Shown in pieces: positions 205 through 898 of a DNA stretch of 898 nt. Each line of letters opens with the position of its first letter. The first letter of the stretch is position 1. This DNA is from Escherichia coli (GTDB lineage Bacteria; Pseudomonadota; Gammaproteobacteria; Enterobacterales; Enterobacteriaceae). Made by a program: the position numbers and the translations under genes. The notes beneath the pieces were generated by a model. That model ran no database searches. It saw only the letters and a program-made list of their open reading frames with translations, and had not been told where the DNA came from. The stretch lies in NCBI RefSeq assembly GCF_003334315.1, contig NZ_QOWR01000127.1; one strand, 5' to 3'.

Positions 205-268
205 GTAGATGAGTTGTGTAAGAAAGTGACAAGTTGGATGTATTCGCATCCTGGAGAGAGAATTAGAT

Positions 269-487
269 ATGAACGTTTTAAGACACGTTAATGCGATTAA
301 CATGGGAGTGTGCATTCTAATTTGGGTTATTGGATGTGCAAATGCTAAAGTTCTTAAACGATGTATATTACCCGCTCCTGATGGTGGCGTAGAAAAACTA
401 TCAAAACCCAACTTACATGGAGTAATTAAAAAAGTTGATTTGAACACAAATGAAGCGGAAATTAAAATAAAAGAGGGGGGGCAGTGA
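269..487 (+). CDS. Putative small lipoprotein, 72 aa as written; possibly the N-terminal part of a longer frameshifted gene
   Basis: ORF from the track. Shine-Dalgarno-like GGAGAGAG at 253..260, about 8 nt before the ATG at 269. The N-terminus MNVLRHVNAINMGVCILIWVIGC has a basic n-region, a hydrophobic core and a lipobox-like V-I-G-C with Cys23; Ala at +2 suggests outer-membrane sorting by the Lol rule. The mature part is Lys-rich, as expected for AT-rich acquired DNA. No family recognised. Confidence 0.55.
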   Translation: MNVLRHVNAINMGVCILIWVIGCANAKVLKRCILPAPDGGVEKLSKPNLHGVIKKVDLNTNEAEIKIKEGGQ

Positions 488-660
488 GTTTTATTTTTAA
501 TGAGGAAACATTGTATTTTACTGTTTTTGGTGGGGATTTTATTATGGATGATTTAAAAAAAGTAAAAAATACGGAAGCATGGGTATGGTATAAAAATTGC
601 GATAGTAAAAATAAAAATGTGGCAGTTGAACTTCTTCAAATCTACGAATTGCATCAATGA
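484..660 (+). CDS. Small ORF of 58 codons from GTG 484 (or 38 aa from ATG 544); probably the C-terminal part of the upstream lipoprotein gene, separated by a frameshift in a G7 tract
   Basis: The frame is open from 466 to the TGA at 658..660, about 65 codons without a stop in ~30% GC DNA, which is unlikely by chance. Translation: VSFIFNEETLYFTVFGGDFIMDDLKKVKNTEAWVWYKNCDSKNKNVAVELLQIYELHQ. GTG 484 lies only ~3 nt after the G-run (poor spacing for initiation); ATG 544 has GGTGGGG at 529..535 with ~8 nt spacing. It is not in the supplied ORF track, presumably because it is short. Confidence 0.4.
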   Translation: MSFIFNEETLYFTVFGGDFIMDDLKKVKNTEAWVWYKNCDSKNKNVAVELLQIYELHQ

Positions 661-700
661 AAAATATAGTTAAATAGAGGAGGTTATTAATAGCAGGAAA

Positions 701-724
701 AGCATCACGTGATGCTGATTTTTT
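701..724 (+). terminator. Candidate rho-independent terminator: perfect 16-bp palindrome followed by a T6 run
   Basis: AGCATCACGTGATGCT (701..716) is a perfect palindrome (6-8 bp stem), followed by GA and TTTTTT (719..724). It sits 41 nt after the stop at 658..660. On the minus strand it is preceded by A6 and followed by only T3, so it is weaker in that direction but could act bidirectionally. Confidence 0.4.
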
Positions 725-806
725 GCACTAAATAATTCGCGCTAATGTTCAATAGTTAATATATCCCTCATCAGGGAAAGATCACCGGTGTGCCGTAGGC
801 ACAAAG

Positions 807-829
807 ATGCAAAACGGGACGTTTTGCAT
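807..829. repeat. Inverted repeat ATGCAAAACG-GGA-CGTTTTGCAT (10-bp arms, 3-bp spacer); possible operator or RNA hairpin
   Basis: Perfect arm complementarity seen directly. A 6-bp-stem inverted repeat TGTGCC-GTA-GGCACA lies at 789..803 and an 8-bp palindrome CACCGGTG at 783..790. No T-run follows, so it does not look like a classical terminator. Confidence 0.3.
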
Positions 830-898
830 GTAATAAGCATAAGCTTGTGAAGAGATGGTGGCAGGCCCACCGGGATCTGCTGTCGGAAGTCGGTCCCA

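Follow-up and report, generated by a model that had tools for sequence, protein, structure and literature searches.

A probable decayed orphan immunity gene at the variable end of an Rhs toxin element in the type VI secretion island of Escherichia coli

The Rhs locus and its IS1-associated deletion

A stretch of 898 bp from Escherichia coli (assembly GCF_003334315.1, contig NZ_QOWR01000127.1), referred to here as the window, was analyzed for the origin of an AT-rich segment that lies between two insertion sequences (IS), IS1 and ISAs1, and harbors a small gene split into two open reading frames (ORFs). The analysis suggests, with a probability of roughly 0.82, that this segment forms the variable 3′ terminus of a polymorphic-toxin element of the Rhs type in the type VI secretion system 1 (T6SS-1) island, and that its small gene is a decayed orphan immunity gene. 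Positions 205–291 (+ strand) are identical to the end of the Rhs coding sequence in strain BE2-5 and contain 28 codons, VDELCKKVTSWMYSHPGERIRYERFKTR, followed by a TAA stop, which form the end of a YkuD-type L,D-peptidase domain and are all that survives of the Rhs protein within the window. The small gene begins before this toxin remnant ends, and the overlap of 23 nt was found in every E. coli locus inspected. The original prediction, made from the letters of the window, had placed only the split gene and a terminator-like palindrome in the segment and had seen no partner toxin gene in the window, thereby overlooking the toxin 3′ end.

The small gene is represented by two + strand ORFs, an N-terminal part at 269–487 (72 codons) and a C-terminal part at 484–660 (58 codons, −1 frame), which share a GTGA stop/start overlap and have a run of seven G between them at 475–481 (+ strand). 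The first part carries the lipobox VIGC with Cys23 and ends at a premature TGA resulting from the frameshift, and the second carries FGG(88–89)D, W107 and C111. A single added G, making eight, restores an intact frame of 130 aa from both ORFs, in agreement with the earlier proposal of one split gene. The alleles are called here G7, G8 and G9 after the length of this run.

When the complete genomes of E. coli were searched, positions 205–898 were matched in 2575 records, with at least 80% covered in 865 of them, and the remaining records (<80% coverage of 205–898) match the ISAs1 part only. Among the matches listed or fetched, 205–291 always lies under an annotated ‘RHS element core protein’ with the overlapping gene behind it. 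The small gene was present in 1015 of 5426 complete genomes and tied to the toxin locus, so that it does not behave as an ordinary core-genome gene, and about one in five complete E. coli genomes carries the Rhs toxin with the L,D-peptidase tip. The gene is absent from E. coli K-12. At the yafV site the cassette adjoins vgrG and the T6SS-1 cluster, and strains with fuller loci show the order vgrG, Rhs, small gene, ISAs1 and yafV beside a complete T6SS-1 gene set. In strain EC26, the island starts with the aspV tRNA, a yafT-like lipoprotein gene, ykfM, a hypothetical gene and hcp, continues with vasL, tssM, tssA, vasI, tssH, icmH, tssK, tssJ, tagH, tssG, tssF, tssE, tssC and tssB, and ends with hcp, vgrG, rhs, the small gene, ISAs1, yafV, ivy and fadE. 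The window locus is therefore the E. coli T6SS-1 island between aspV and yafV, and Rhs and T6SS genes, for which the original prediction had advised examining the flanks, were found at the intact loci, vgrG among them.

The base composition points in the same direction. The GC content is 51.0% at 1–204 (IS1), 33.3% at 205–780 and 53.4% at 781–898, a contrast that is also visible in the sliding profile and that had been estimated correctly by hand. Across the full locus, GC falls from 62.8% in the Rhs core to 43.7% in the Rhs C-terminal tip and 32.4% in the small gene, and it rises again to 41.6% in the ISAs1 transposase gene and 54.7% in yafV, which is the classical composite pattern of Rhs elements. 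The segment had been taken for a horizontally acquired module; it is not an independently mobile unit but the variable end of an Rhs element that was cut by IS1.

The chromosome of E. coli PSS-13 matches the window over its entire length with 100% identity, and the order there is truncated hcp, IS1, rhs tip, the two ORFs, ISAs1 and yafV. The left end of IS1 occupies 1–204 (− strand), with its terminal inverted repeat ending at 204 and insA running leftward from about 149, pointing away from the cassette. The reverse complement of 204–1 starts with GGTGATGATGCCAACTTACTGAT and is annotated in PSS-13 as an IS1A-family transposase. The PSS-13 copy is a complete IS1, 768 bp long and delimited by GGTGATGATGCC... 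and GGTAATGACTCC..., in which insA/insB and both terminal inverted repeats are present; it is annotated as IS1A with programmed frameshift and lacks the 9-bp target duplication. The IS1 part of the window also gave thousands of plasmid matches at 98–99% identity. The left flank of IS1 is located inside hcp, and the two flanks are separated by 27,308 bp in EC26 and by 12,407 bp in the already eroded BE2-5. Since the duplication is missing and the flanks are distant from each other elsewhere, IS1 marks a deletion of about 27.3 kb, which extends from inside hcp through the T6SS genes and vgrG and removed all of rhs except its last 28 codons.

Insertions were also observed in other copies of the gene. 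In the E. coli B lineage (derivative NEBExpress, locus L030, 4096–4863), an independent IS1 in the opposite orientation lies inside codon 12 of the immunity gene, with its junction at window 303/304 and everything upstream deleted back to a ykfM remnant; the annotated ORF begins within the IS1 end (LESLPGVCILIW...) and no longer encodes the positively charged first part of the signal peptide. Further fusions were found in other protein fragments of the gene (P0004, P0005 and P0009), so the immunity gene appears to be a repeated IS target.

The cassette is not confined to the yafV site. Strain C8 (locus L025, 610–5220) harbors the same Rhs L,D-peptidase tip with a split G7 gene at the RhsE site, beside pptA-yddH-nhoA, where the Rhs core protein is intact and the single-nucleotide polymorphisms are otherwise as in G8 strains; this copy speaks for movement of the tip-plus-immunity cassette from one Rhs locus to another. 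The plasmid search yielded, in addition to the IS1 matches, just two cassette matches. One is an 87%-identical copy of 205–898 at 24236–24936 of CP044307.1 (149 kb, E. coli, chicken meat), for which no gene is listed, while the other was discounted as it lies in a 4.8-Mb record, too large for a plasmid.

An L,D-peptidase-type Rhs tip and its exported partner

The intact Rhs protein carries a 153-aa tip after the DPIGL/DPLGL demarcation, and its core scored 2508 bits against the NCBIfam equivalog RHS_core, for which the cut-off is 2000, with Rhs_assc_core also matched. The C-terminal domain of the toxin matched the Pfam family YkuD (PF03734, L,D-transpeptidase catalytic domain) with E = 3e-5 to 6e-5, as did, at E ≤ 0.001, 12 of the 17 homologues of the tip (31–54% identity). 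These sequences share the motif RWxHGGGSGL..PRQGWKPTxGCTRAQNEDV, in which H96-G-G-G and R120 show no variation, and G117, C118 and T119 almost none. The AlphaFold model of the tip had a mean predicted local distance difference test (pLDDT) score of 81, and its top nine Foldseek matches in the PDB all possess the L,D-transpeptidase fold, with L,D-carboxypeptidases as well as L,D-transpeptidases among the proteins matched, namely Csd6, a YkuD-type enzyme, Bd1075, Ldtfm (three entries), YcbB, an Acinetobacter baumannii L,D-transpeptidase and Tlde1a, with probabilities of 0.99–1.00 for Csd6, the YkuD-type enzyme, Bd1075 and Ldtfm. Profile (E = 3.4e-5), fold and the conserved His, Cys and Arg thus assign the tip to the YkuD fold. 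The search of PDB sequences returned no match above chance level for the tip and no match at all for the small protein, and NCBIfam contains no family for either of them.

The joined 130-aa protein is the same as P0001, which represents a cluster of 1292 E. coli sequences, except for L128F. A word-indexed protein search recovered only copies and fragments from E. coli and Shigella, and 64 matches were obtained when 1.84 billion cluster representatives were searched exhaustively. The distant homologues are proteins of about 120–150 aa with N-terminal signal peptides and 23–45% identity to the E. coli protein (alignment A2). They align without a break over residues ~17–127, across both ORFs, which indicates that the two ORFs form one domain, and the conserved residues are distributed on both sides of the frameshift, with C32, L34, P35, D38 and G51 before it, where the motif C32-x-L-P-x-P-D-G-G is located, and G88, G89, W107 and C111 after it.

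This continuity leaves little room for two genuine, translationally coupled genes, which we consider the least probable of the alternatives: the GTGA overlap, a G-rich Shine-Dalgarno-like run just 5′ of the GTG and the separate RefSeq entries WP_001101841.1 and WP_000008098.1 might suggest such a pair, but the distant homologues are all single proteins aligned across the junction, conserved residues including two cysteines lie on both sides of it, 71% of E. coli copies have a single 130-codon ORF and the second ORF has no signal peptide.

The fold search that had been proposed for the fused protein was carried out on an AlphaFold model with a mean pLDDT of 89.6, which shows a signal helix followed by a small β-barrel, with generic small barrels of the DUF5666/DUF3221 type and CusF-like proteins as its nearest folds. 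The DUF5666/DUF3221 barrels were the best matches in AFDB50 after the true family members (E = 1e-5 to 1e-4), and weak Pfam matches to them occur in a few family members, with none of 37 at E ≤ 0.001. To our knowledge, these barrels have no functional link to toxins.

The statement of the original prediction that it recognized no family was borne out by the hidden Markov model searches, as no Pfam, NCBIfam or PDB family fits the joined protein and no Pfam or NCBIfam family fits the 37 homologues. Among the candidates considered, a Pfam match to DUF4367 (E = 4.6e-4) was rejected as probably spurious, being found in one of the 37 members only. Neither the small protein nor any of the 37 homologues matched DUF2195, Imm16 (PF10987, DUF2750) or Imm57 (PF15596) in Pfam, which therefore places the immunity family outside the Pfam and NCBIfam models. 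The G8 protein thus appears, judging from its homologues and their neighbors, to define a family of immunity proteins for L,D-peptidase toxins that has no model in either database.

Tandem arrangements of the immunity domain, with two to five copies per polypeptide, were also observed, as in P0070 (175 aa) and in P0077, a protein of 643 aa with five matched stretches. When 100,044 species-representative genomes were scanned with a 4-sequence alignment, one locus only was detected, so the family is rare among such genomes. This locus lies on an E. coli-like contig of 2.6 kb in a metagenome-assembled genome labelled Collinsella sp. (JAIJJM010000460.1, L036) and encodes the E. coli protein at 99% identity; the contig is most likely a mis-binned Escherichia contig.

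The N-terminus had been predicted to be that of a lipoprotein. The PROSITE pattern PS00013, {DERK}(6)-[LIVMFWSTAG](2)-[LIVMFYSTAGCQ]-[AGS]-C, with the Cys at 15–35 and K or R within the first seven residues, is matched by GVCILIWVIGC with Cys23 and Arg5, and UniProt lists a Shigella protein of 98% identity under the name ‘Lipoprotein’. The lipobox was present in just three of 37 family members, the rest having plain signal peptides that end just before the conserved cysteine, and in the E. coli protein an A-N-A site for signal peptidase I follows Cys23 directly. Export of the small protein is hence well supported by its predicted signal peptide, whereas its lipidation, at the level of a sequence pattern, is possible.

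The pairing of toxin and small gene recurs among the distant homologues. P0072, whose identity is 27% across alignment A2 and 35% within the matched stretch, starts 3 nt behind a toxin gene of this family (hmmsearch E = 2e-73) on the metagenome contig L021. In an unrelated contig set (L037/L038), P0066 (34% and 40%, respectively) comes after the C-terminal part of an Rhs protein in which this toxin domain was recognized (E = 3e-75), and several small proteins with signal peptides are encoded one after another behind it. Imm57, Rap1a and MafI2 immunity genes share an array with the homologue P0058 (45% and 50%), and an Rhs fragment directly adjoins P0069, with a full Rhs gene close by. Together with the overlap between the small gene and the tip, with which it travels (at the RhsE locus of strain C8 as well), and with the vgrG and T6SS neighbors, this pairing supports the earlier guess that the gene belonged to an immunity system of the Rhs, contact-dependent inhibition or T6SS kind.

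Behind further toxins of the family lies an unrelated signal-peptide protein of about 200 aa without a Pfam family (L003 4597–5190, L007 3645–4253 and L009 1299–1904). These proteins had no match to the immunity profile and were ruled out as members of the immunity family; they are probably, from their position, a second immunity family for the same toxin type, and their signal peptide fits a periplasmic target.

Probable decay of the window copy and weighing of the immunity-gene reading

In intact strains, vgrG is followed by rhs and by the 130-codon immunity gene overlapping the toxin, and T6SS-1 would deliver the Rhs tip into the periplasm of neighboring cells, where its His/Cys active site may attack the stem peptides of peptidoglycan in the manner of the L,D-peptidase effector Tlde1. 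The small protein would be exported by its signal peptide and possibly lipid-anchored at Cys23, would fold as a β-barrel that is probably clamped by a Cys32–Cys111 disulfide, and would bind the toxin and thereby block it. In the window, the deletion orphaned the immunity gene, and the G7 run would disable it separately. Since the exported half already stops at codon 72 and the other half lacks a signal for export, this allele is unlikely to yield a functional product, and the window copy is most likely a dead, doubly disabled relic.

The distribution of the alleles is consistent with such decay. Exact matches in the 1015 carrier genomes comprised 719 G8 (intact), 184 G7 (split), 52 G9 (split) and 60 other variants. 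G7 and G9 share an identical 560-bp haplotype and G7 occurs also on a second haplotype at the RhsE locus, suggesting that the length has probably changed more than once. All nine inspected G7 or G9 loci at the yafV site also carry another lesion of the weapon, which is a stop in vgrG or tssM, a deletion, or a frameshift, stop or truncation of Rhs; this fits decay under relaxed selection. The only inspected locus at which vgrG and rhs are both intact, that of strain 120899, has G8 (judged on these two genes), and two other inspected G8 loci are also eroded, so that the sample reflects general decay with no clean association between lesions and allele.

A living G7 allele is the alternative that survives best, though we rate it as unlikely. 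The tract might act as a slipped-strand on/off switch among G7, G8 and G9, or −1 recoding or transcriptional slippage might yield some full-length protein. The tract length is indeed polymorphic, the haplotypes point to recurrent change, and the ORF1 frame reads GAG GGG GGG, formally an X_XXY_YYZ slippery heptamer (G_GGG_GGG) on which a −1 slip would give ...KEGG-AVSF..., exactly the G8 protein. Folding of the downstream sequence revealed no stimulatory structure, with a minimum free energy of −6 kcal/mol (z = +1.2) that 179 of 200 shuffles equalled, and this is what makes recoding or phase variation unlikely in our assessment. No Shine-Dalgarno-like element occurs at the usual distance upstream, G9 is beyond rescue by a −1 slip, the nine inspected yafV-site G7/G9 loci all have a broken toxin or secretion system, and some of the length calls are possibly homopolymer errors of long-read assemblies. 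If this alternative were true, a lineage could tune the output of an exported immunity protein through its G-run.

Several points weigh against the immunity-gene reading as a whole. The immunity family has no counterpart among curated families. Of nine homologue contexts that were examined, four show no toxin; the sequence upstream of the gene amounts to <0.7 kb in three of these and to about 4 kb in the fourth. The second catalytic His of the Tlde1/Ldt motif is replaced by Met in E. coli and is variable in the family (T-x-G-C), so the chemistry of the toxin may differ. G7 has been kept in 184 genomes and could be not entirely useless. In the literature searched, no experimental work on the toxin or the small protein was found.

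The first two of these points would also suit a gene that has nothing to do with immunity, that is, an unrelated exported protein or lipoprotein, metal-binding or of the envelope, carried as a passenger in the AT-rich Rhs tip, and the nearest solved folds of the small protein are likewise those of generic barrels (an S-layer assembly domain, CusF, SilF and IF1, with a target-normalised template modelling score of 0.55–0.70). Such a passenger is very improbable, given that the gene overlaps the stop codon of the toxin, the canonical position of an immunity gene, that its pairing with the toxin recurs at 27–34% identity (35–40% over the matched stretches) in the two unrelated contig sets, and that P0058 sits in a poly-immunity array; the CusF match is weak and of fold only. 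The reading of the small gene as a decayed immunity gene is accordingly preferred here.

Other features of the window and relation to known systems

Further features lie to the right of the small gene. A terminator-like hairpin was located by consensus scan and folding at 693–726 (+ strand), with a core stem at 701–716 and a T-run at 719–724; its folding energy of −14.4 kcal/mol (z = −4.2) was equalled by none of 200 shuffles, and the palindrome noticed in the original prediction is thereby confirmed. The left end and leader of the ISAs1-family (H-repeat) element occupy 768–898 (+ strand), and the transposase gene would begin at about window 1091, outside the window. Other copies of ISAs1 in the genomes start aligning at 768–772, which is thus the true right edge of the cassette in place of the 780 proposed earlier, and all related loci have an annotated ISAs1 transposase further downstream. 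What had been regarded as a GC-rich genomic flank is the leader of this element, whose transposase gene is itself far from GC-rich, and the local GC peak coincides with a match to the Rfam structured-RNA motif RF01999 (group-II-D1D4-2).

The first 42 of the 121 nt of this motif lie at 857–898 (+ strand), between the ISAs1 left end and the transposase gene. The match scored 30.6 bits in the window alone, where it is cut by the window end, and 81.8 bits (E = 1.9e-16) over the whole 118-nt model in the full context (L001 12653–12773, to about window 977). No match to group II intron domains D5/D6 and no intron-encoded protein were detected nearby. A minus-strand ORF of 89 aa at 178–447 was dismissed, as it crosses the IS1 junction and is antisense to the conserved gene.

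The toxin and its partner, on the strength of their arrangement, appear to belong to the known class of Rhs toxin/immunity pairs. Rhs-CT/RhsI modules of enterobacterial T6SS (Koskiniemi 2013 and Ma 2017, summarized in PMC6730261) share with our locus a GC-rich Rhs core ending in PxxxxDPxGL, an AT-rich variable tip with a small downstream gene overlapping the toxin stop, a position beside vgrG and the T6SS with H-repeat/ISAs1 behind, and the common occurrence of orphaned tips and immunity genes. Unlike those modules, the window copy has lost its toxin and is frameshifted. Most characterized E. coli Rhs tips are nucleases or other toxins that act in the cytoplasm and have cytoplasmic immunity proteins, whereas the tip examined here has an L,D-peptidase fold and an exported partner.

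L,D-peptidase toxin domains on Rhs-repeat proteins associated with T6SS were predicted earlier (Zhang et al. 2012, PMC3482391), and the present tip resembles these Tox-LD-peptidase toxins in having a predicted domain of this kind at the Rhs end and a link to T6SS. Their predicted partners are Imm16 and Imm57; P0058 sits between Imm57 genes, and the window protein matches neither family in Pfam. Unlike Imm57, which is described as mostly alpha-helical, the window protein is a predicted β-barrel with a signal peptide.

A further comparison concerns Tlde1/Tldi1 (Tae5/Tai5) of the Salmonella SPI-6 T6SS, in which an effector of the L,D-carboxypeptidase/transpeptidase type (DUF2778) is paired with an immunity protein of the periplasm (DUF2195). 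Tlde1 is toxic in the periplasm only and is neutralized by a Sec-exported immunity protein (bioRxiv 10.1101/2020.02.18.954545; PMC9638812), and Rhs-fused versions of the Tlde1 type have been mentioned (bioRxiv 10.1101/2020.02.18.954545). An L,D-transpeptidase-related fold, a conserved catalytic His and Cys and a Sec signal on the immunity protein are common to both systems, as delivery by a T6SS would be. In contrast to Tlde1, the present toxin matches YkuD and not DUF2778, which was found neither in the tip nor in any of its 17 homologues (Pfam), has T-x-G-C-T-R in place of S/T-H-G-C, shows no PDB sequence match to Tlde1a and gives a weak fold match to 7uma (rank 9, probability 0.38). Its partner is likewise not a DUF2195 protein as Tldi1 is, and the effector is fused to Rhs rather than free-standing. 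By sequence, the pair thus falls outside the Tlde1/Tldi1 family, and the closest resemblance would be one of mechanism only.

Taken at the strength given above, the odd AT-rich patch is explained as well-understood genomic debris, in which an Rhs/T6SS locus was dismantled by IS1 while its antidote gene lingers and decays. The locus also points to a widespread E. coli Rhs toxin with a putative cell-wall L,D-peptidase tip, whose partner would be an exported β-barrel outside Pfam and NCBIfam, and to a probable immunity gene with a mutable G-run of which three length alleles coexist in the species.

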